Shown piece by piece: positions 6,001 through 55,683 of a stretch of DNA of 64,000 bases. The notes below the pieces were generated by a model that had not been told where the DNA came from, ran no database searches, and was given only the letters and a program-made list of their open reading frames with translations. Position 1 is the first letter of the stretch; the number at the start of each line of letters is the position of its first letter. This DNA comes from Minutocellus sp. GHC0000111 (taxonomy: Eukaryota). Position numbers and translations under genes: made by a program. The DNA lies in assembly GCA_977018835.1 (NCBI GenBank), contig OZ361260.1, positions 1,488,001-1,552,000 on the forward strand, written 5' to 3'.

Positions 6001-7050
6001 CTCCGCGGTCATATCCACCGCCTGCACACCACCCTCGGCGTCCGCCGCGGCAGCACTCCCCACCAGCAGATCTGGATGCATCAACACTTCCGGATTTCCA
6101 CCGACGACCATAATTCGTTCGTTCAGATCCTCACAAACGGTCGTGCATTCATTGCCCAAAATACAGCTGCTCTGCGCAATGAACAGGCTCCATTCCAGTC
6201 CATTGGTGTATCCTTTCCCCGTTGGCATGCTTGTACCGATGAATTCCATCACATCACAAAGAGTGTAGTCCACGTCGGTTTGCAACGTCACATCGATCCG
6301 AGCATACTTGTCACTTGGGTTGGCCGTATCCATCAGCTGTCCACCGGGAAGCGCATCCAGCACGGTCCGGATCCACTTGCCGTACTTGACGAGGTAGTAC
6401 ACGTTGCCATCAGACGGGCTGGTCCATTCCTCGAAGCGCACCTTATAAAATGGATTCCAATCCCAACCGAACGGTGCATCTCCATTGGCCTTGGATTGGG
6501 AGAATCGGGACAGCTCGACATCCTTGGTGGTAAAGGCAAAGCGTCTCCAACGGCTGTTCTGATCGCACGGATGTGGCCCAGCCAGAGCATAAGGGTAACT
6601 CGATGTCGTTCGAGGCACGAGGTGACGACGGTAGTAGGCTCGGTGCGAAGAGATGGGAGCGTCGTATATCTGATTGTGCGTGTATGCCGCCAACGCCTCT
6701 CTGCCATCGTCATCGGTCCCCAACGTCGATATGGAGGCGCTCAGAGATTGGATCTCCTCTAGCTTGGGCCCAAAGGTTGTCCGCTCCAGGAATCGTGCCG
6801 CCAAGACGTCGGAGCTTACCGAGGGACGATGGTACGACGTCAGGTAGTACTCTCCCTCGATTCCGTCCAACCCAGATATGATGCACTCCTCCTCCGCGCC
6901 ATCGCAGGTCAGAGTCGTCGTCGAGAGATATGCACCCGCCGTGAGCTGCCAGGCCCTGCCATCATAACTCCGAGCGATGGGAACATGAACGGACGAGACG
7001 AGACGGGTCAGAGTGCACAGACTCGTCTCGTCGGTGGCACCGGTCGTACG
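1..7050 (-). CDS. Large multi-exon DUF1800 + DUF1501 fusion protein with a C-terminal Ca-binding EGF-like domain. It runs off the left edge of the window and its 5' end is uncertain.
   Basis: DUF1800-type motifs (ARFLERTTFGP, QRMAFALSQIF, PDENYAREIMQ-LYTIGL, HPNTAPFVSKNLI, SNPSPAYV) are followed by DUF1501-type motifs (LYLFGGADTFN, LFSHYHQ, GGFDHH, SEFGRT, GTDHAWGG-GNYF). The last exon (<1-727) reads DENECETGTSGCDQLCTDKVPGFECACNAGYTL. GT-AG introns at 728-836, 2808-2925, 4539-4685, 4865-5013 and about 5722-5889. One-base indels in homopolymers at about 4430 and 5587. Confidence 0.85.
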
Positions 7051-7170
7051 TACGTATGACGTACCTAGGTACGTTGTACGTGAAAAATTGCAACCGTCAA
7101 AAACCGCGGCCATCATGCCAATTGGTACATACGATATCAACTGGCAAGGTGCTATGAAAAAACGGCAACC

Positions 7171-9523
7171 ATGGCGAGGAGGAAACCCATTAAAAAGGCC
7201 TCGTCCGTCGATACGATCTCTCCCGAGATCGAGGAGGTAGCCTCGAGAGCAGTAGGTGCGTTGTTATCCTTGGTGAATCCTCAGTTAATGCCGAGCGATA
7301 CGTTGGTCGCCCGAGTCGCGCCAGTACTCAGAGAATTTATTGACCTCGCTGGGCGGTCGAGCGATGGCTATGACCTTGCCAAAAGGATGGTCGAGTGTTG
7401 CTTCGTTGCCAAAGTTTTAGATAATGCCGCGGATGCGTTGAGTGCGACGGATCGAAGTGGCGGTGCAAGACATCATGGTCCATCTCCGGGCGAGCGAGAT
7501 TCGACCTCTCACGGAGGAGTCGCTTCCAAAGTTGAAGGAAGACCAAGACTTTGTCAACAAACCAGTTACCCTCGACAGGAACAGCGGTAGTCCATCCCAC
7601 TGGAGAAGCTTTGCGTTGATGCTCAAGGAGGCCGGATACAAACGGAGTGACCCTATATTCGACGAGGTGGTCGCTCTGGCAGCCTGGTTGGCCACAACCA
7701 AACAGTTAGACGAGTTTGTGATCATGCCAATCATCCTGGGCGAGGAGGAGACCATACTGGAACCCGAGTACGGCAGCCCGACCTTTTCGCTCATCAACGA
7801 GTACATTGCGCAATGTGAGAAGCGACCTGACCATGTAAAATTTGGAGGGGGGGCAAACAGGCGTTACCGTCAGATGGATTGTCCTACCGAAACGCAGATC
7901 CAAACATCGCTCGTGGCCGTCCGCAAGGCCCGCGTATTGGCTGGTAGCATCCAGTCCGGAGAGGAGGCCGAGGAAGAGAAGGAAATAGTTGCTGCATACC
8001 ACTACTCGGTGCTTCTGGACATACTCCGTGGTATGCATGGTTGCCGAGATTTCAAAAGTACTCATGCCATCGAGACGTTGGTAATGTGCGAGCTCGGCAT
8101 TCCGCCAGAGGAACTGGAGGAGGCGCGAAGTGGACAGGGCCGAGGCCGAAGGAAGCGAAGGAGGCAAAAGATATCGGCCAAGGCGGGGAAGAAGGAGGGC
8201 GAGGTTTTGGAGGAACTATTTGGGCCGGTCGACCTGATGCTGTATCGGATCGGATGCCACGCCCAGATCTCCTGTTCCGTGAAACCAAAGGAAAAGGCGA
8301 CGGAATTCAAGGTAGACGGACACCTCTTTTTGACCAAGTTACTGGACAACCTTGTGGATGCCAAGGTGTACGACGTGCCAAGGAAGCTATCGATCAGCGA
8401 AGGTGTGATCTGCGAGGCAATGAGAGGCACCTTGCCGAATGAGGAATACCGACTGGGCCGGTGCGTGTATCAGATTCTGCCCACCGGAGTCAAGCTGGTC
8501 GGCAAGATTACTCGGGCCACCGCCGAGGAGGATCCCGAGCTAACTTGTAGTGGTGGCGAGAAAGACAAGGATGACAAGATTGTGGAGGCGGCTAGATCGA
8601 GAGCTGGAATCGAGATGAGCAAATGGAGGAAGAATGACGAGGAGTTTCTGGTCTTTAAGATGCACGCTCGTAGGATGGTAATCCAGGCTTTAAGGAGTGT
8701 TCAGGAAGCGGACCATGCTAGGGAGATCCTCTTATCATATGTCCGTCTCATCCATTGGAGGTGCTCTGTTGTGAGCGCTGCCCTAATGGACTCAGAACAA
8801 GAAGTCGTTAGAATATCAAAGAGCACCAACGCTTCTGCCTTGCTGGATGTCCTGGAAAAGCAAGCGCCAGGCAATGATGCTGACCCCAAAAAGAAGGAAA
8901 AGGAGGAGGAAGCTGCGTCGAAAAAATTTCTGCACTTCCAAGAGGCGACCACGAAGGCAGGTCTCCACATCAGAGAGGTTGTGCAGCTAACTCGCACGGA
9001 CGTGCACTTTCTGAGGAACGCGATGCTGATGGTCATTGCAATTGATGCTTTCCCCGAGGCACAGCGTCGCAAAATGATGTCCAGTACCAGCAAAGAAGAG
9101 ATCAAGGGATTGATAAAGGACTCCAATCTGCCAGGCGTCAGAAGCTGGGAAAAAGCGGAGAAGGAGCTTACCCTACATGTAGGGTCTGCCACTAAAAGAA
9201 AGAAAAAGGGGGATGGCGGGATACATGTATATACACAAAACGAGCTCGCTAGGCAGGCGGCCACGTATCTTTTGGTTGCTCCACGGTTTTTGGCTTCAGC
9301 CAACAGCGTAGAGCAATTGATGTGTTCGTCGCTGAGTGCGATCAAGAAGTGCACAGGTCCCAACATCGTCGATGATGCCATCCTCGAGCCCGCAAAGAAG
9401 CGCTTGAGCCAAAAATTGCTCACCGCAAAGGATGGTGACACGATCGTCGTGGGGTGGCAGGGCAACAAGGAGTCCCCGGAAGACCACGTGAGGGCTCTGG
9501 CGAAGTACTTGCCAACGAGCTAG
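7171..9523 (+). CDS. Orphan protein of about 780 aa (one frameshift at about 7441) with possible HhH-like helical motifs
   Basis: ORF 7171-7440 (MARRKPIKK...) joins the 693-codon ORF 7442-9523 if one base is removed at GCG TTG A GTG CGA. Basic NLS-like stretches (GRGRRKRRRQK). Motifs LRGMHGCRDFKSTHAIETL and SEGVICEAMR. Confidence 0.6.
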
Positions 9524-9667
9524 CTAGGCCCGTTCAATTTTTAGAACCATCTAGAGTCAATACTAGTACATACCGGTACTTGCACATTACTTATAATAAC
9601 GACCCTGATGAATTTAACATTTTTCGCTCGGGAGAGCTCGCAAAAATAACGCGAGGGACGTTATTTA

Positions 9668-9730
9668 TGTAACCGAGGTCCCGAGGGCGCAAATTACGAA
9701 GTAGATCTAATTTGCCCGAGGGCGGTTACA
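9668..9730. repeat. Nested hairpin with CCGAGGGCG direct repeats, possibly a mobile-element terminus
   Basis: Outer stem TGTAACCG...CGGTTACA. Inner stem GCAAATTAC-GAA-GTAATTTGC, perfect once a GATCTA insert is removed. Confidence 0.6.
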
Positions 9731-9744
9731 AGTAGATCTATTAG

Positions 9745-10599
9745 TCTAGCTAGATCGAACACACATATCTTCTTCATTGCTACATGTATGCGGTCCATGC
9801 ACCACTTCCGTTGCACTGAGCCGTCGACGCTTCACCCATATATATACCAAGCGCATTTGAGTGGGGGGTGGTGGCATTTCTTGACAATTCATAGAGAAAA
9901 CTATTCCCAAAGTCCCGTGTCTGATGTCGGCACCAGATTTCACCTTCATTGCTTCTGCCGCCCGAGAGGAACGAAACCGGAGAAAGCGGCCAAACCAACA
10001 CGTGAGATCGATGGATGTAATATAGAATGAGCATCGTGCGTGCTGATATTGCGTGAAGGAACAGTGGTTGAGGCTTGAAGGGGGTTGTAGTTGGGGATTT
10101 GCTACTTTCAGATGTTTTTGCTTTCCATGGTGACGGCCACAATGATACAAAGATGGGGCCCAATATCGACCCTCTGGCGCAAACTTGCTCCCAATATTAC
10201 CCAAGTGAAAGTAATGCCGGTCAGGGGGAATTGAAATGGATGTAGACAAGCATCAGCCATCATTCTTTGCCATTTTGAGGGTAAAAAAATATTGAAAATT
10301 TCTGGGCATGAGGAGATGTTGCTAAAATAGCACATGATGTACGAATGAGTTTGCTTTCAAGTATGCAATACTCACCTAACGCATGTAGTTGGCGTATACA
10401 TCGGTTGGCTTGGAGTTATTTATCGTTATACCATCATTTGGTGGCCTTCTTGTGGAGATGAATTCTCCTTGCTTTCGCCGTGTTGAGAGAGGACATTTAG
10501 TGGGTTCATTTTTGCGCTGCATAAAGTATCGCACAAAAAAATTTCCTAGTGCCTTACTATTTACGGCGATTTTGTCGGCGGTCTCGTGGAATCACTCTA
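9745..10599. mobile_element. Probable truncated non-autonomous DNA transposon relic ending in GAATCACTC|TA
   Basis: Non-coding stretch whose right end (10589-10599) matches the right TIR of the MITE at 11288-11518. No matching left end was found. Confidence 0.4.
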
Positions 10600-10628
10600 C
10601 ATGTGTGTCTAGCTTTTATAGAGATCTA

Positions 10629-11121
10629 GAGTAAATGTCATATTAAGAAATGGGTACGATTAAGAAATGGGGTCTCCAGAGCCCATTGTACCATACTGCT
10701 ACTACGTAGCTAAAAAGTTCGTTTTCAAAATATTTTTCTCAGTGGCGTTTGATAGCTCACTGGATTCAGCTCGTGGAGAGGAGCTCAAATCCGGTGAGTT
10801 TTTGGAAATCTGAGGACTGGGGGGAAAGTTATGTGCGTTATTGTAAGTTCAGTATACCTACTAGCTTCTACTAGTCATGATTTTACGCGGTGAAGTTACC
10901 CTAGTATTTCTTAATTGGGCAGTTTTAGAAATCGTCCGGTGATGCCCAAAAATCGAAGTACGGCAAAACTCAGACGGCATGGAATTTTTCCGCCGTTCAA
11001 AATTTTCTCTTACTCTCCTCATTGAGAGCTATCAAAAACCGTGCCGTTTGGGGCGTCTCGACGAATGCTCGCATGTTTGTAGCATTTACTATTTTCAATT
11101 TCTTAATTAGACATTTTACTC
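10629..11121. mobile_element. MITE of about 493 bp with imperfect TIRs and TA flanks
   Basis: Left end TA|GAGTAAATGTCATATTAAGAAAT. Reverse complement of the right end TA|GAGTAAAATGTCTAATTAAGAAAT. Non-coding interior. Confidence 0.75.
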
Positions 11122-11208
11122 TAATGTAGACGTCTACGTTTGTAGATCTAGAATAATATAACATCTAGATCTAGATCTGTGTCTAATGTACGTTTACATT
11201 TGTAAATT

Positions 11209-11265
11209 GAATCTACGTAAACGTTTATCAGATTGTCATCTTGAGGGTAAAATCAATACATGTAG
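11209..11265 (+). repeat. Dispersed repeat of about 60 bp containing a hairpin, copy 1
   Basis: AATCTACGTAAACGTTTATCAGATTGTCATCTTGAGGGTAAAATCAAT matches the copies at about 17968 (+) and 51900 (-). Confidence 0.8.
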
Positions 11266-11287
11266 TAGATCTAGAGTCAAATCAATA

Positions 11288-11518
11288 GAGTGATTCGGTG
11301 AATGATCACAACACCAAATACCGAAGTACTGAAACGTCTGATCACGCAATCTTGCTTTGAAAATATTGCTCATTCATTGGCGATCAGCGTCGAACCAGCT
11401 GATCAACGAAGAATGAGGAATATATTTTGAATTGACTGGCACTCAAGACTACGTGATCAGACACTTCGCTATTTGAGTGTTCGATCATTTGCTGGTGTGT
11501 GTTTCTCCCGAATCACTC
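11288..11518. mobile_element. Foldback-type MITE of 231 bp with TA flanks
   Basis: Perfect TIR TA|GAGTGATTCGG...CCGAATCACTC|TA. The interior forms a long imperfect palindrome (e.g. GTCTGATCACG/CGTGATCAGAC, CTCATTC/GAATGAG, GATCAGC/GCTGATC). Confidence 0.85.
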
Positions 11519-11718
11519 TAATACATGTACTAGTCTAGAGTCTAGTAGATCTACCGGTACATGTGTACCGTTGCACCGGTACCGGTACGTCACAGCTGAA
11601 AAGAGATTTTGTTAGCAGTTTCTTTCAGACATCGATGGCAGCGGCGCGGAAATGCGGAAAGCCCAAGCTCGGCATCAACAACTTGAAAACTTCCACCACA
11701 CCATTTCCATTGCCGACC

Positions 11719-14700
11719 ATGGCACCACCAAGGAAACGGCGCAAATCAGACGAAGCATGGAACGAGAAACGGAGGGCCGAACGCCGAGCAAAAGGTGGGA
11801 GGAAGTTTGCTGCTGGGTACCCTGAATGGTACAGATACACGAGCGATGAAATGAGACATGCACATGACCTGTGCATTCTTGCCCGGAACTGCGCGCTGAA
11901 GGGTAAGGTACCGGCGAGCGCGCGTGTAGCAAACATGAATTTTGCAGCAATGATGACACAGGCAATGGCAGCAGGTGTTGTTCTTCCAGTACTTTTGGTA
12001 CCACCGATTGCTGCTGCTTCCGCAATGGCAAGCATTCCAAACGTAAATTTGGCAGTGATGGCGCCAACAGCAGCAGGTGCGCTTCCAGTAGTATCACCAA
12101 CCATGGCCACGGCGACACCAGCACCGCCTGCCGCTGCTGCTGCTGCGGCAGCACCAGCAGCAGCTCGGACGGCAGTCGCATCTCCGGCCCCGGCTCTGAA
12201 CGGTAGCACCGACAAGAGCGACAATGCCAATGGTGATGCAGATGCGATGGAATGTGAATCGGATAGTGGACCGATGCCGGCGCAGGATGACGATTCTGAA
12301 CTTGTGCCGGCGCAGGATGACGATTCGGTCCATGTCGACGCCGTTGGCATCAGCCCGACGGGGGACGATCCAGACCAGTCCTCCGCGCCGATGCCAACTG
12401 TACATGTACCGATACCGACGCCGACGCCAACTATACCGATACCGCCGACTCAGATGGGCGGCAGGCGCCTGAGGCCGAGGCCGGGGCGTGCGGGGCAGAG
12501 CGATGAAGCAGCAGAGGGGGAGCGCGACTGTGAATTAGACTTTGAGCATTGCTGCGGCTGCTGCTTGGTCTGCAAAAGAATGTTTGACAGCGAAAGTCTC
12601 AAGGGATGCCTCGAGCGCAAAGATTCAGAGTTGGATGGAGTGGGTCTGTTTGCAACCCAAAACCTGCGAAAGGGCGATCCCGTTGTGGAATACGAGGGGA
12701 AGATTCAGACACACGATAGGAAGTCGAGGCCCAGCGGGAAATACATAGTGAAGGTGTCAGGGTCAACGTACATCCATGGGAGCGAGAGCAGCATGGGCAG
12801 CGCGGCGAACCATGGTTGCGCCGAGAAAGCGAACTGCGAGCTGAGAAAGAAGGTGCTCCCCGGCCGTACCCGTGAGACGGTATTCATTGTGGCGCGCGAG
12901 GACATCGAGAAGGGGTCAGAAATTCTTTTTGATTATGGCGACGGGCACGACCTCGGGCATGGGTGTAGGTGCGGCAGCCTCAAGTGCCGCAGTTTGGCCG
13001 CAGACGGCATCAGCGACGGCGGCGGCAGTGATGGAGATGCCGACGGATTCTCCAACGACGATGAGTACGAGGACGGCGGTCTCGATGATCTGACGGAGAA
13101 GGAATTGGGAAGGCCACGGCGGGGGGGACCGCTCGGTCGAAGGAGCAGCCGGCTTTCCGATCCTTCGGATCCTTCGGACCGCCCAACGCCCGAGGATGCC
13201 ACCACGTACCAGCAGCCACCGAAGAGGAAGAAGAAATCCAAGCCTGGAAAGGCAAAAGCTCCGCGGGCGGTCCATCAGAAGCAACCGAGTAGGAGGGAGA
13301 CCACCAAGGCTGGCGTCGATACCCACGGCCGCGACGGAATCGTCGACGAGAAGGAAGTCCAGGAGGAGGTGGAGAAGGTGTTGGCCGCCTTTGGCAAGAG
13401 AACGCAATCTGCGGCTGGCACATGAGCACCCCGGACGAAGGCTCACCGGACGAGTCTACACTCGGCTCACCTTGCCTACTACGACGATTTCAATACGAAA
13501 GATGACGTCCAATTGTTTGTCGACGGAACGGTTGTGTTCAAAGACGAAGAATACTTCAACCGGAGGAATGCGCTCATGATCAAGGTCAACGCCATCCTTG
13601 CTGCGCAGCACAGACCCCCACCACGAGCGATACCGATACCACCGCTCGTTGGCCTCTCTTCTGTGCTGACGAAGGAAGACGTTGGGGCTCTCGTCAATTT
13701 CTTTTTCGACAAGGATGGGTCTCTCTCGAAGGTGGCATCGGCCATGGTCAAGGAATGTGGCTACATAGTATTTCATGGTGCGCGTCCAAATGCTGTCAAC
13801 CGAGACAAGCGGTATCAAGTCAAACGTGAGTGTCCCGCTCTGGAAATCGGATGATCGAATCGCGGCTCCTCCCGCCTATTTCTCCCCTCTTTACGCTTGT
13901 TCTCGATGGCAACTCTCACCACTTGTTCGTATGTCATTTATTCCCAATGGTGCTGTTCGTTCCCGCTACTCTTCGCAGTGCGCGTTGATGCCCTGCTTGC
14001 TGAAGGTCAACATACCGGTGAAAGAAAGGATAAAAAAAAGAATCCATGCCAAGAGAAGGTGGAGACAATATTGCGTGCCTGCTTGCCAGAGGATTCCGAC
14101 TTTGTAGAAATTGTTCTCCTCTTTGGGGGCGAGGAGGACCAGGCATTTCATGTAGACACGGAAAGGCAAAAAGCACTGCACATTGTAAGTTTGATTCATG
14201 CTCCATCGGAACCGCATCTCCGTCTCGGCCTCTCTTGACCTTTCTCTGCCATGCTTTCTCATCGCCATGCTTTTCTCATACCCATGCGCCTCCATTCCCT
14301 TTTCCGCTCTCATCCCAATCGGGCCGACCGTTGCCTTCCACGCAACGCCTCTGTCCAGACGGGTCTGCCGATGGAAGCGAGCATCAGTGACGTGGTCAAA
14401 AGGCTAGATGATAGTAACACCCAGGTGGGCTGGGAGACCGACTATCTGGGATATGAAACCGCCATGTCGGCCAAGAATGCCCCATCGAGCGTCTTGATAG
14501 GATTGGACGGCGGGGGCTCAATTCACCTTGGGGTTCAGCAGGACCGCATCCTGATCGAGAAGAAGGATGGAATGCGCTTCTGTCGCATCAAGGGGGACAA
14601 AGGGAATCAACAGTTTCCAGTGATGAGATCGACCAAGCATCTGGCCGCGATCAAGGTGGAGAGGGGGGCAAGATTCATTGGAAACTCCCCCCACGCCGGC

Positions 14701-15419
14701 GTCCGCAATTTCAGTCGAGATTCGGATGAGCAGAAGCTGGCAAACCAACTCCACGAGGCCATTGCCGAGGCAGGTGAAAACAATGTGCGATCGGTGAAGG
14801 ACGAACTGACCAAATTTGTGGGTCTGAACAAGCTCTGCCGGCTTCATTTCTCGACGGAGCCCAAAGACAAGTTTGTGTTGATTCCACGCGACAGAGTGGG
14901 CTACGATGGCTGCGAGAACAATCCAGCCAGAAATGGCTTCATGGACCCGGTGGGTACGAAAATGGCGAGAAGAGCCAAGAATCCCTCCGTCTCTGCCTCA
15001 TCATCCCCTGCCATCCGGACCAATACCCCTGTGGCATCAGCCAGCAACGCAGTTGGCGGCAGAACAAGCCGACGCCGGCGAAGGCCCCGAACCAACACCG
15101 CTGGCAACGGGTCGGCACCGATTGCAGGTGCGGCCGCAGCGTACGGTACCAGCGATGCGATCGACCAGCCCAAAAGCCGACGCACGACTCGAAACGACAC
15201 GAAGAAGGCCACGCTAGAAGAGGTCAAAGTTGGCTCACGAATCAATTTTTGTGGGTCGATAGGTATTTTAAGGCAACCATCGCTTCGAGGGAGGAAGATC
15301 AAGGCCCTCATTGCTACGAGATCCACTTTGATGATGGCGAGATAGACACGATAGATCTGTCGGACAGCGAAGAAAAGTTCTACATTCTGACCGACGACAG
15401 CTTGCTACGTAGATGCTGA
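11719..15419 (+). CDS. SET/post-SET + 2OG-Fe(II) dioxygenase + Tudor-like multidomain protein. Two introns, an in-frame TGA at 13423 and a one-base deletion at about 15250; possibly a pseudogene.
   Basis: SET motifs GVGLFA, EYEG, AANHGC, EILFDYG and post-SET CRCGSLKCR. The same frame continues past TGA 13423. Phase-consistent introns at 13826-13978 and 14185-14358 join DQAFHVD (HxD), FIGNSPHAG (distal His) and CRLHF (Arg). After the T-run indel the frame reads VKVGSRINF-LWVDRYFKATI...YEIHFDDGEIDTIDL. Confidence 0.75.
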
Positions 15420-15730
15420 TAGCTGCATCAACACCTACAGGACTGCATGTAAACGTAACCCTATTGCATAACACAGGCTACTACTCAGCTATTAGACTAG
15501 CTACGTAGTGTGTTAATTACACGCACATATATACTGTAATGATCATCTCATAATACACACAATCAATTGTACTGCACATTGAATGGTTCAGTATCTCACC
15601 ATCAGATGCCATCCGTACCAACTCGGTTCGGTCTGGAAGGTCAAATTCCGACGGCATTACGTAGTACAACAGGAATCAGTCAGGTTCAGGTTCACCAATC
15701 ACCCTCGCTCACTCCGGCGGGATCGATGGA

Positions 15731-16321
15731 ATGGATACTCTCGTCGGCACTGATGTTACCGATACGCACGCTGTTTCCAACAGGTCTGCCGATGTGCGCA
15801 GGGTCACGCTGGAAGTAGCCAATCAGCCTACCAAGCGTATGGCCAAGCCACATGAAGATACTCCCCGTCCCACCAAGGTCCCCAAGTTGGGCGGCACGGT
15901 CGATGCTGCCAAGGCCCTCCGGAGCCTGGACCCCAATGCCTGCAAGGCTGCCAATTCACCCCGGAGCCTGAGTGCCAAGGCCCGCATCCCGGTCAGCATT
16001 GCCGAAGTGGCCGAGCTCACGCCTTCGCCCCGTGGTAGTGACGGTATCGGATACAAATCCGCTCAGAAGGATGACAATAAGGAGAATATGGATGATGCCA
16101 AGTTCGGAAGCGCCAACTTTACCGCTGGACCGGATCTGATCCTTGGCAATGGAGGTTACGAGACCGAAGTGAGGGTGTACAAGAAGATGGAAACGTCCAT
16201 CGTCAGCAGGGCCTGGGCGGAGGCGAAGTTCCCGGGCGACCAGATCATCTGCGGCCGCATCCCGATCACCCGTTTCGGATTGTTCTGGAGGGGCCGTCAG
16301 CATGGATGGTCTGCTGACTGA
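15731..16321 (+). CDS. Hypothetical protein or fragment, 196 aa
   Basis: ATG-started ORF with coding-like GC3 and a short internal repeat (CCGGAGCCTG x2). No recognisable domain. Confidence 0.35.
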   Translation: MDTLVGTDVTDTHAVSNRSADVRRVTLEVANQPTKRMAKPHEDTPRPTKVPKLGGTVDAAKALRSLDPNACKAANSPRSLSAKARIPVSIAEVAELTPSPRGSDGIGYKSAQKDDNKENMDDAKFGSANFTAGPDLILGNGGYETEVRVYKKMETSIVSRAWAEAKFPGDQIICGRIPITRFGLFWRGRQHGWSAD

Positions 16322-51938: not shown

Positions 51939-52759
51939 TCACCCACGCATGTAGACCAGCCTCGAGTCATTTGCAATACCGGTACAAAAAGGAACTTCGA
52001 ATCGAATCGAATACGGTACCGGTACAACATGTAGATCTATCAATTGGATCTATAAAATATCAATCGAATCGAATCACCATCCACCACCAATCGAATCGAA
52101 TGAATCACCCCCTTATAAAATAGTGAAAAGAGAGAAGTCCCCACTTTCGCCATCACACGGCAGCAGCACCTCACATGTACGAGGTCGCGGACAGCAGTTT
52201 CAGGGACCCGGTTTTCGGGTCTTTGGGCAAAATCTCATAAAAATCAGCACAAACGCACGCAGCAAGCAGCATTTGTTTGCTATCGTCCTGTCTTCAAGAT
52301 GGCGGTGACGGCAGTGCCGACGGCATCCGCTTCACGCAAGGGATAAGCGTGGTATCTCCAGAACGGGTTGGTCCTTGACCTTGGACCGACTCGGAGATAT
52401 CGATTTCATCTTCCCATGCCAGCGTCTGGCCGATTCACCCCATCCATCGCCCCTCCCGACTTCTGCCAGTTTTTCCGATGACAACCGGTCACCTCCTCCA
52501 CCTCCCGACCCCACCACCACCTCCCAAATGCATTGATTCAAGTAGCCATATGGTTTGAGCTCCGATATCGGTCTCCATGGTCCCCATAATGGCGTATCTT
52601 ATGCGGTCCGGGTGACCCCGCGCCAAAATCGAGCGGGCCAAAAAAATCATCACCCGCCCGGCGCGCCCCCCACTCAATGAAACCTTCCTCATTTCCAACC
52701 CACCCGACATACAAACTGTTGCTCTACTGCCACAAAATACTGCATCCAACACCATATTA

Positions 52760-55683
52760 ATGCAAATGGCTGTTACTACTGCTGCCACCGCAGCTGATGC
52801 GCCAGCATGTCGCCGCTCCCGTCGGTCCGGCAGCTCCATCCCATGCTTTGATTATTTTGTCCATCGGAGCTGCACCATCGATGCCTCTGCGATTCGTGGC
52901 AAGTCTCCTGGGATGATCCAGACCATAGCGAACCGGGCATGGGCGGGCCTCTCACTTCAGAAACAGCAGGATGTTGTGGAGCAAGCCCGAGAGGAGGAGC
53001 TGTGCTGTCCGAGCCAGACCGGTCCTGATCCGGCACAAGATGTGCCGATTTCTCAAATTCAAGTTGCTCGGCGCAATTCGTCATCCAACAACGCCGATGC
53101 CAGCCCTGAGCCGACGGTCGAGGACAATGCTGGTGTCGCTGCTCGTCCTGGTGATGATAACATCGAAGCTGGGGGCATCGCCGAGTCCATGGCTAACAGT
53201 GAAGAATCTGGCAATCCTGCCAGTGTCGGTGTTTCTGCTACCGGCACCGCCAATTCTGGTGGATCGACCGAGGAGAATTTGGATGTGCTGCTGGTTGAGG
53301 CCGAAGCGCAATACAAAGCTGCAGAGGAGGCTTTGAAAGGGCTAAGGGATGCCTTGAAACGAGAAAAGCGGAAGGATGAAAAGGCCATGGTCGATGCCGA
53401 GAAGAAAAGGAACAAAATGAAGGAGGCGATGCGTCATTTGGAGCAGAGGGTGCAAATGCGTGAACATCTTCGGTCGCACAGGATGCCGACGGATGCACCA
53501 CCCGAACGCAAGAAAGCAATGAGAATGGAAGACAACATGCGACCTGCCATCAGCACTGGGGAACGTGTCCTTGTGTCTGCCGACTTCAGTCCCAACATGA
53601 ATCGGCCTGAGGGTAAGGGATTTGTTATGGTCAGTCGAGGTGTCGGTGGAGGTGCTCTTTGCGATGTCCAGTGTGAGAAGCCTTTTGGTGGCATGATGCA
53701 TAAGAATGTGCCTCTCAAGGCCATCACCCCGATCCCACTCGGCCTCAATGCCGATTCAATTGCCAAGGACAGGCGCAAACGGACAGTAGCTGCTCAGGCG
53801 GGGATGGATAGTGTTGACAGCGCCGGTGCCAATAAGCGTGCAAAGAGCGATGGCAGTCCGATGGAGACTCTTGTCGGAAAGCTTTTGCATGGCATGCGAT
53901 ACAGGAAGAAGGATGGATATCTTCGAAAGGAGGCGAATCGAGCAACCAAAGGCAAGAAGGGATTGAACGACGAGGACAAGAGCATGCTTTTTGCCCAGGG
54001 ATTGCTTCTGGAAGTGCATTTGAAGAGCACCGGAGGGACGCAGCACTCAAGTAGGAACAGTTCATCGCAGAAGTTTCAGTCGGATGGGAGGGTCACTATT
54101 CGTGAGCTCTGCAGAGCGTGGGGGAAGGGTAAGAATGGGCTGCGAGACATCCAGAACGAGTCTCGGAAGAATGCCATTGCCCGGGGCATGCCAGCAGATC
54201 AGGCCGAGCTTGCATTTGTCACCCCCGCTCCCAAGGATTCGTCGGTTCGGCCAAAGTCTACCATTGACAATTACAAGACGGCTGAGCAGCACTTTACTGC
54301 TAAGCGCCTGTATGCAATCAATAAGTGCAGAGAGGCAAAGGAAGACTGCTATGATTCTGTATCGAAGGAGGCTGACAATGAGTTGCTCAAAACGTACCTG
54401 ACCGAGTACGACACCATCAGCGACGATGACAAGCAGCTGTGGGAGCTGAAGAGGCGGGAGCACTTGGCAAGGCAGCCGTACCTAGGCACATACAGAACGA
54501 CATTGTTGCGGCCCTTTCCAGCAATCCTCAGCGATTGTTCCGTGGTTTGGAGCAGGACATTGGTCTGTGGTGCTCGCACAAGACGATTGAGCGGTGGCTC
54601 AAGTCATTCGACACCTTCACTTTCTACAAGGAGCGGCTGGTACCGCGCCTGTCGGAGGCTCAAAAAGCTAAGCATCTGGCCTTTGCTCAGCTCGTGCGGA
54701 ATTTCTGGAACATTCGGGATGAGAACGGCAATTTACCGAATGGAAAGAAGCGAGTTCTCCTCGTGCATTGCGATGAGAAATGGTTCTGGGGTCTCGTCCT
54801 CCGAGCTTTTGCGAAGGCTTGCGAGGAAATCGGCGTGAAAAAGCGAGATTACGCGGCCTTTCACAGGAGCCACATCAACAAGGTCATGGCCATTGCATTT
54901 GTTGCCACTGTCTTTGACGGTTCTCTTGAGAGTGGGTGCGAGGTTGTAAAACTGCCACTGGTACGAGCTCAAGCTCCTAAAATAGCGGAGCGAGCTCAGC
55001 ACGAAGCAGCATCACAGCCTGATGGTTCAATACGGTACCCAAATACCAACCCCGATGGGACACCAAAGGAACCTCTTCGCCGGAAAGGAGAGTCGTTTCT
55101 TGTTGATTGTTGCGTTACTGGATCGAACGAAGGCACCAAAAAGGATCCGAAATGCTCTTTGCTCCTCGTATTCAAGGAGACTATTTTCCCAGCGATTCTC
55201 AACCTTGTCGGTCCGGGCAAGCAATACGAAGATTGCCATGTTATTATCCAGGGCGACCAGGCCGGGCCTCACGAGGACGGAACCTTCACGCAATTTGTTA
55301 CTAACTTCTGTGCTGAGCAAGGCTGGACGTGGCAGCCACAGGCACCGCAGATGCCTCACGCCAACGTCCTTGACTTGAGCGTGTTCCCCGCGATGAGCCG
55401 GCGGCACTCGGAATGGGCACGAAAAATGGTAGGCACCTCCGTCATTTCCACCGACCAGATCTGGGACACTGCCGAGGACGTTTACGATAGCATGCCTAAC
55501 TGCAAAATTGCTTCGGCCTTCATTCAGTACTGGAGGATAATGGGCCTGGTGATTAAGGCCGGTGGTAGCAATGAGTTTGTTGGAAGGTTGGGTGACGAAA
55601 ACTTGCACACTGGAATTAGGATCGACTTCAACGAAACGGCCAAGGGGATGGAGCCCTCAGCTCGTCATCCTTCTAATAAATAG
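52760..55683 (+). pseudogene. Long (about 970 aa) mariner-type DD38D transposase, frameshifted by an 8 bp insert at about 54480
   Basis: VHCDEKWF, QGDQAGPH and QAPQMPHANVLDLSVF (38 residues counted between D2 and D3). HTH-like GLEQDIGLWCSHKTIERWL. ORFs 52760-54838 and 54439-55683 fuse when 8 nt are removed. Confidence 0.88.

Follow-up and report, generated by a model that had tools for sequence, protein, structure and literature searches.

A locus at positions 11719–15419 of a 64,000 nucleotide (nt) stretch of DNA from the diatom Minutocellus sp. GHC0000111 (contig OZ361260.1; the whole stretch is called ‘the window’ below) raises the question of whether a SET domain, a 2-oxoglutarate- and iron-dependent (2OG-Fe(II)) dioxygenase and a Tudor-like domain can be made as one protein chain, and on what substrate such a chain might act. 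The locus is divided among five stop-to-stop open reading frames (ORFs), which a sequence-only reading of the window had proposed to join into a single gene. We find that they do join and that the window allele is interrupted at two polymorphic sites. We consider it plausible, at somewhat short of an even chance, that the open allele of this one spliced gene encodes a SET–dioxygenase–Tudor chromatin enzyme that would act on lysine.

Joining three exons on the forward strand (11719–13825, 13979–14184 and 14359–15250) yields one frame with a sole in-frame stop, a TGA at 13423, and brings together the sequences QAFHVD (14140–14157), PHAG (14689–14700) and CRLH (14836–14847). The intervening introns at 13826–13978 (153 nt) and 14185–14358 (174 nt) both have GT-AG borders. 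Exon 1 encodes a basic N-terminus, an Ala/Pro-rich linker, the SET domain, an acidic/basic linker and the start of the dioxygenase; exon 2 contains the H-x-D motif (within QAFHVD); and exon 3, which extends to 15419, encodes the second histidine (PHAG), a helical insert, the strand bearing the arginine (CRLH), a basic linker, the Tudor-like domain and the stop codon, with a change of frame at 15250 in the window allele. The stored protein of the SET ORF (P0184, a cluster of three members) has an alternative upstream in-frame ATG at 11635, in a region with insertions and deletions in sequencing run X5.

The model was compared with public sequencing runs, 19 of which were listed and 15 of which hold part of the locus. 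Eight runs were compared, four of them RNA and four DNA or of unknown type (run X15, which has short partial matches only, was left out); the data are assembled contigs and so document presence only. Three of the four RNA runs (X6, X8 and X9) join precisely across intron 1 and all four do so across intron 2, in data from two studies, and no splice joints were found in the four DNA or unknown runs. The 2,347 nt record 12 of run X6 extends from 12267 to 14952, joins exon 1 (covered from 12267 to 13825) to exon 2, lacks both introns and has GGA at 13423; apart from this codon it differs from the window by stop-free substitutions and an in-frame 12-nt deletion. Because this contig is twice spliced, carries GGA and is free of stops, it places the SET domain and the entire dioxygenase core in one open frame. 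Farther downstream, record 19 of run X8 (14399–15431) has an extra G after 15250 and connects the later half of the dioxygenase with the Tudor-like domain, and a stored protein from a separate 1.34 Mb contig, P0007, also has the open allele at 15250 with dioxygenase joined to Tudor. RNA contigs end at 11709 and 15431; we do not take these positions as transcript ends because the first is also a break point of DNA contigs and the second is next to a variant, at 15432. With both sites open, the protein would be 1,124 residues long, with basic clusters at residues 5, 502 and 1009 from which a nuclear location may be predicted.

If the SET domain and the dioxygenase were instead separate genes, or their joins the product of chance, the stop at 13423 in the window allele would be expected, and a contig extending over two genes does not by itself prove a single transcript. 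We regard this as highly improbable, given that X6 record 12 has both introns removed and stays open from a point ahead of the SET domain until after the arginine strand, and that the stop is a single-base polymorphism.

The two interruptions prove to be allelic. At 13423–13425 the TGA of the window, also present in X1, X2, X8 and X9, is replaced by GGA (Gly) in X6, X12 and X5, or three of the seven informative runs. The SET ORF had been predicted to continue past this stop and does so in the open allele; a CGA codon had been suggested as its origin, and CGA occurs in none of these runs. Likewise, a one-letter insertion near 15250 had been predicted to restore the final frame, and such an insertion exists at 15250–15251, with the difference that the added letter is a G rather than a T. 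It restores the sequence RINFWWVDRY, is found in two of the three RNA runs that span the site (X8 and X9) and in P0007, and is missing in X6, X1 and X2. Both interruptions are present in the contigs of X1 and X2, which have depths of 100 and 160 and are possibly the window's own source; on the strength of these deep contigs, assembly error was rejected and both the TGA and the frameshift are taken as true alleles. The SET-first fusion segregates for null alleles. The four RNA runs carry four distinct combinations of the same variants, which would be explained if they are mosaics of two haplotypes, and we infer that one haplotype has both sites open. The 12-nt deletion, at 12949, is itself polymorphic (X6, X2 and X5), and the coding length variants besides the frameshift, of 12 and 9 nt, are both in frame.

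The two outer domains were identified with unequal confidence. The SET domain (12637–12939, with motifs GVGLF, EYEG, ANHGC and LFDY) matches PF00856 over residues 307–407 (E 4.6e-14; 53.2 bits against a cut-off of 22.4) and matches KMT2, ASH1L and SETD8 chains at E 1.7e-7 and weaker. In an alignment to KMT2A it retains the GxG and NH motifs, the C-terminal tyrosine and the post-SET cysteines, the last within CRCGSLKC at 12964–12987; the RF of the RFINH motif is replaced by SA. The Tudor-like domain (15225–15370) is whole only in the open allele, and the frameshift cuts it off in the window allele. Four Tudor-type families match the end of the gene weakly (best 21.8 bits against 25.8), including Tudor_3 (E 1.7e-4) and Tudor_5 (E 0.003), both below the Pfam cut-off, and the best match in the PDB is 7de9 (E 0.11). 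The sequence contains W, Y, F and D residues that may form an aromatic cage for methyl-lysine. These matches agree with the earlier assignment of the gene end as Tudor-like, and it is likely, from its sequence, a Tudor reader. Between the SET and Tudor domains of the gene model, Pfam gives nothing above cut-off.

That intervening region holds the predicted dioxygenase (13495–14900), which is spread over all three exons and is supported by family searches, alignments, models and structural matches. A first search with the domain found four relatives beyond the window's own protein, at E 1e-35 to 1e-37. A profile built from three rows then matched 199 clusters at E ≤ 1e-3 among 1.84 billion representatives, of which 150 were listed as family members. 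The core is covered by 58 of the 151 family proteins examined, and of the 57 homologue rows that have all four columns (63 rows in total), 54 retain the H, D/E, H and R positions; the window copy itself has H, D, H and R. One member comes from the cultured diatom Striatella unipunctata. Nine metagenome loci carry the family, the longest of which (L002) sits among ordinary eukaryotic genes; at 6927–12721 of that locus, a canonical member lies tail to tail with a gene containing TCR/CXC and F-box domains.

The family is missed by the catalogs that we searched. Neither the window read-through nor 82 family proteins (E ≤ 0.02) gave a Pfam match to PhyH (PF05721), JmjC, Cupin_8, AlkB or TET/JBP, using a library that did pick up a phage JmjC protein as a detection control. 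The homologue P0030 matched no family at E ≤ 10, NCBIfam and PHROGs gave no family common to more than two of 64 members, profile searches of PDB sequences with the middle domain gave no match, and the ESM Atlas gave no usable match for P0003 or P0030. Judged from these searches, the middle domain belongs to a large diatom family that lacks a Pfam, NCBIfam or PHROGs model. A viral or prokaryotic origin is unsupported by the scans made, which are weak: in single-motif scans, no relative was encoded at any of the 15 pattern matches in viral contigs or the 97 in prokaryote genomes, and the best tblastn match in phages had E 0.5. Kinship to Syn9 gp54, considered with the diatom-expanded dioxygenases of PMC2938197, was rejected (hhalign probability 0.13%; the family profile gave negative scores against Syn9 proteins, 8 of 13 being listed).

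Predicted structures place the domain more clearly. The window model was folded from the read-through sequence, with X at each TGA and the introns included; its mean predicted local distance difference test score (pLDDT) is 76, and it falls below 50 only at residues 119–174 and 241–294, stretches that coincide with the two introns. The model of P0030 is of high confidence (pLDDT 92; predicted template modeling score 0.91) and contains a helical insert of ∼45 residues between the second histidine and the arginine strand, which is likely the reason that profiles miss the family. A VIA-align search of 48,161 chains with the window model returned AndA (Z 8.7; root-mean-square deviation (rmsd) 3.6 over 161 aligned residues) and AsqJ (8.6), with AlkB (7.9) and OsALKBH1 (7.8) within 1 Z of the top. 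The P0030 model returned AsqJ (Z 9.2; rmsd 4.0 over 176 aligned residues), AndA (9.1) and PHYH (8.4), followed by ALKBH5 (7.8) and the JmjC-type proteins YcfD (7.5) and TYW5 (7.4). With the window model, Foldseek gave no coherent list and no row at E ≤ 0.001; with P0030 it listed 2OG-Fe(II) oxygenases, with a best E of 1.6e-3 and a probability of 0.96 for ALKBH7. Cyanophage oxygenases also appeared, at probabilities up to 0.99, none of them at E ≤ 0.001.

The listed VIA-align rows of both models are 2OG-oxygenase-type folds throughout, and because these uniform lists agree with the conserved motif, assignment of the predicted domain to the classical, non-JmjC 2OG-Fe(II) superfamily is well supported. 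The sequence-only reading had recognized H-x-D…H…R as a dioxygenase signature, and the family alignment together with the double-stranded beta-helix of the predicted models upholds that recognition. Its further suggestion, of a non-JmjC enzyme beside a SET domain, agrees with the lack of JmjC and Cupin_8 matches in Pfam and with top structures that are classical 2OG enzymes. The models do not clearly separate the PhyH, AlkB and TET/JBP types: PhyH-like enzymes rank first, with AlkB tied, and no TET/JBP or KDM chain is among the best 50 rows of either VIA-align search, a result that does not exclude them.

The leading structural matches (AndA, AsqJ, SnoK, MysH, EasH and PHYH, with the cyanophage oxygenases besides) would fit a dioxygenase that hydroxylates a small molecule, with the chromatin domains acting as passengers or localizers only. 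Known PhyH-like enzymes act on small molecules, and the family shares with AsqJ, AndA, SnoK, PHYH and PHYHD1 the H-x-D…H…R motif and Z scores of 8–9 over 160–180 residues. It differs from them in being only 8–17% identical, in lacking PF05721, and in having large inserts and fusions to chromatin domains. Furthermore, no biosynthetic partner domain was found above cut-off in the 82 proteins, and the partners that were recognized are chromatin- or DNA-binding types. We consider a small-molecule substrate quite improbable.

Those partner domains, and the history of the fusion, were examined across the family. Most long members have a conserved N-terminal domain of ∼300 residues (P0027-P0156, alignment A5) that is absent from the window gene and has no Pfam or PDB sequence match; a suspected resemblance to FANCD2 was unsupported in either. 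This SET-free form is the usual one of a large diatom family, a point that the sequence-only reading overlooked. Among the 82 listed members of at least 250 residues scanned against Pfam, seven have a chromatin- or DNA-type match (SET in two, an E2F/DP winged helix in two, and Tudor, MBD and DUF6824 in one each), four have weak unrelated matches and 71 have none. The MBD (in P0097) is above cut-off, and the winged helices are in P0079 and P0093. The four first relatives all match a PTM/DIR17-like Tudor domain, one of them above cut-off. A metagenome locus (L001, 3–3449) contains an E2F/DP winged helix, the family N-terminal domain, the dioxygenase, a Tudor domain and a C-terminal Cys/His motif in successive frames, and is apparently one gene with introns.

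A SET domain is present in four further members, at the C-terminus rather than the N-terminus: P0117 and P0120 are assigned by Pfam, and P0114 and P0139 by a profile built here from all four proteins, which makes the latter two assignments partly circular. These C-terminal SET domains lack the NH motif and mostly lack the final tyrosine, and may for that reason be inactive. Their profile did not match the window SET domain, which is 25% identical to that of P0117 by BLAST (E 0.003). In a midpoint-rooted tree of 62 rows (rows with fewer than 150 core residues excluded), the window gene groups with P0052 (support 97/83) and these with the Tudor-bearing P0025 and P0029 (99/96), and the members with a C-terminal SET fall in a separate group of 17 rows (100/98). 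A single clade of the five SET-bearing rows is rejected (p-value of the approximately unbiased (AU) test, 0.0003, an optimistic figure because the SET group was named after a first quick tree). Given the AU rejection, the barely similar SET domains and the opposite domain orders, two independent gains of SET are the simplest reading. A word-limited search with the window SET domain and its linker found only the window's own protein, and in the searches made the SET-first order is so far limited to one organism. A likely origin of the gene is a duplicated diatom member of the Tudor-bearing clade in which the SET domain replaced the usual N-terminal domain.

In the reading that we favor, the SET domain likely methylates lysine, the predicted PhyH-like 2OG-Fe(II) domain, which would use Fe(II), 2-oxoglutarate and oxygen, likely hydroxylates a lysine of a chromatin protein or removes its methyl groups, and the Tudor-like domain likely docks on methylated lysine. 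The chemistry of these steps is established for the three families; it is the partner domains alone that point to lysine, and to a chromatin protein, as the substrate.

Chains that combine a writer with an oxygenase are already known, since SET–JmjC and KDM4 fusions have been described. A SET+JmjC fusion with complementary DNA (cDNA) support occurs in Phaeodactylum tricornutum (bd1647), and the JmjC-SET order occurs in Neurospora (PMC3145265). The window gene resembles the first of these in that a single diatom chain unites a lysine methyltransferase with a 2OG-Fe(II) oxygenase, and both domain orders are known, as they are within the window family. It differs from bd1647, as far as the description of that protein allows comparison, in that its oxygenase lacks a JmjC or Cupin_8 match and has classical top structures, and in that a Tudor domain is added. 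Similarly, the KDM4/JMJD2 histone demethylases are listed in PMC2938197 as fused to Tudor, TAM/MBD and SET domains, the same partner set as that found around the oxygenase of the window family. As outlined there, KDM4 enzymes have a JmjC domain, an HxE motif and a zinc cluster; the window family instead has HxD and a late arginine after the helical insert. What differs here, from sequence and models, is the type of oxygenase, which would be classical, uncatalogued and not JmjC. Our literature search, of incomplete coverage, found no description of the family, of the fusion or of a non-JmjC partner of SET; the family may be listed somewhere.

A bolder proposal is that diatoms possess, in addition to JmjC and LSD1 enzymes, a third, PhyH-like class that demethylates or hydroxylates histone lysine, which was fused at least twice to SET and also to Tudor, MBD and winged-helix domains, and of which the window gene would be a writer–eraser–reader form. 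Histone demethylases are placed in LSD1 or the Jumonji superfamily in PMC3417536. We think the existence of such a class unlikely on the present evidence.

A number of observations weigh against a lysine-directed fusion enzyme. Neither predicted structure has a Foldseek match at E ≤ 0.001, Z scores of 8–9 barely exceed the background of 7–8 stated for VIA-align, and the closest structures are small-molecule enzymes, with AlkB (Z 7.9) tied with them. Within the family, 75 of the 82 scanned members have no chromatin-type Pfam match and the usual form has the other N-terminal domain; where partners exist, MBD and winged-helix domains suggest DNA over peptide. The fusion itself has both sites open in no single contig (X6 combines GGA with the frameshift, and X8 and X9 combine TGA with the extra G), and its SET and linker were found in no second species in the word-limited search. 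Finally, it sits on a long branch of the tree (length 1.24; median 0.48), several residues that at least 80% of the family share, three arginines among them, have been replaced in it, and its 14 coding differences among alleles (10 non-synonymous and 4 synonymous, a small sample with haplotypes mixed) are near the neutral site ratio of 3.2.

Part of this evidence would be accounted for by a dioxygenase that oxidizes a DNA or RNA base (such as 5-methylcytosine, thymine or a methylated base), with SET and Tudor coupling its action to histone marks, a TET- or AlkB-like task performed by an unrelated fold subfamily. In addition to the MBD of P0097 and the E2F/DP winged helices of P0079, P0093 and L001, the family has five arginine positions with a conservation of at least 80%, and AlkB-type structures are near the top of the searches, AlkB and OsALKBH1 for the window model and ALKBH7 by Foldseek probability. 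Some enzymes of the AlkB family have nuclear nucleic acid as their substrate, and the AlkB family (E. coli AlkB, ALKBH1/5/6/7 and NMAD-1) has the same fold and scores less than 1 Z below the best match of the window model; in contrast, it has no Pfam match here and lies at least 1.4 Z under the top for the better homologue model. The AlkB and TET/JBP families are likewise unmatched in Pfam, the window copy has lost three of the five conserved arginines, and the window's own partners are SET and Tudor, domains that act on peptides. We judge base oxidation to be unlikely.

The remaining evidence concerns whether the window gene, as distinct from its family, is under selection. The fusion may be a young, domain-shuffled duplicate in decay, still transcribed and spliced and no longer selected, in a family that is itself functional. 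Two independent null changes are found in the window allele together with a change of phenylalanine to serine beside the second histidine (a position that is phenylalanine in 57 of 63 homologues and in P0007); the ratio of 10 to 4 is neutral-looking; the branch is long, with no relative having the same SET; and the TGA allele is the retained branch in two of the four RNA runs. Set against these, a branch of 1.24 changes per site has left intact all four residues of the catalytic motif as well as the SET motifs and the two splice junctions, the other coding length variants (12 and 9 nt) are in frame, fourteen sites offer little power, and SET has been gained twice in the family. The SET-first fusion may thus be decaying; that it has lost its function altogether seems to us rather unlikely, about on a par with base oxidation.

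The differences among alleles also have a sequence context. Across 11700–16100, nine of 14 transition differences between the window and other contigs are of the type CpA↔TpA, against a background of 25% (P ∼0.002, calculated post hoc and with haplotypes mixed). This context resembles that of fungal repeat-induced point mutation (RIP).

The surroundings of the gene were examined for mobile elements, since the locus had been described as part of a transposon-rich block. Evidence for such a block is weak: small inverted-repeat elements do lie upstream, and the nearest transposase match among the scanned ORFs, at 54430, is ∼39 kb away. An element resembling a miniature inverted-repeat transposable element (MITE) occupies 11286–11520, ∼200 nt upstream of the ATG and outside the gene; it is 235 nt long, with 11-nt terminal inverted repeats between flanking TA dinucleotides, and a second inverted-repeat pair is found at 10633–11116. 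The contig depth of the MITE-like element in RNA runs is far above that of the gene, and a joint going back 223 nt occurs in all four of them. Depth is raised at 11307–11520 and from 16301 onward, which suggests repeats, depth being no measure of copy number. The recognized neighboring genes are of ordinary types, appear diatom-like and include a downstream gene of the RUS family, identified by Pfam. This context does not establish the gene as transposon cargo.

Several other features of the window were recorded. At 16301–16303, contigs of X2, X6 and X8 diverge from the window at 16303 into an identical loose end, and the long contig of X1 stops there as well; the depth from 16301, about threefold, indicates a repeat boundary or a structural variant before the RUS-family gene. 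Two forward-strand open frames lack a Pfam match, one of 693 codons (7442–9523) just upstream of the repeat-rich gap and one of 218 codons (15665–16321) partly under X8 RNA contigs. A Tc1/mariner-like transposase extends over two overlapping forward-strand frames at 52616–55683 (HTH_Tnp_Tc3_2, E 1.7e-6).

An uncatalogued, predicted classical 2OG-Fe(II) domain thus has KDM4-like partners and has been joined to SET twice, in opposite orders. The value of the locus lies mostly in this family, a large one with a well-predicted fold and repeated links to chromatin domains. The SET-first fusion may be a recent offshoot of it that is already fading; should that fusion be no more than a chimera in decay, a profile and a function would still have to be found for the family. 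Its substrate is directly testable, because the family is large (199 clusters), its predicted fold is of high confidence and one source, Striatella unipunctata, is in culture. If the substrate is a peptide, the family would represent a new class of chromatin enzyme, and if it is a base, a new route of DNA modification in diatoms.

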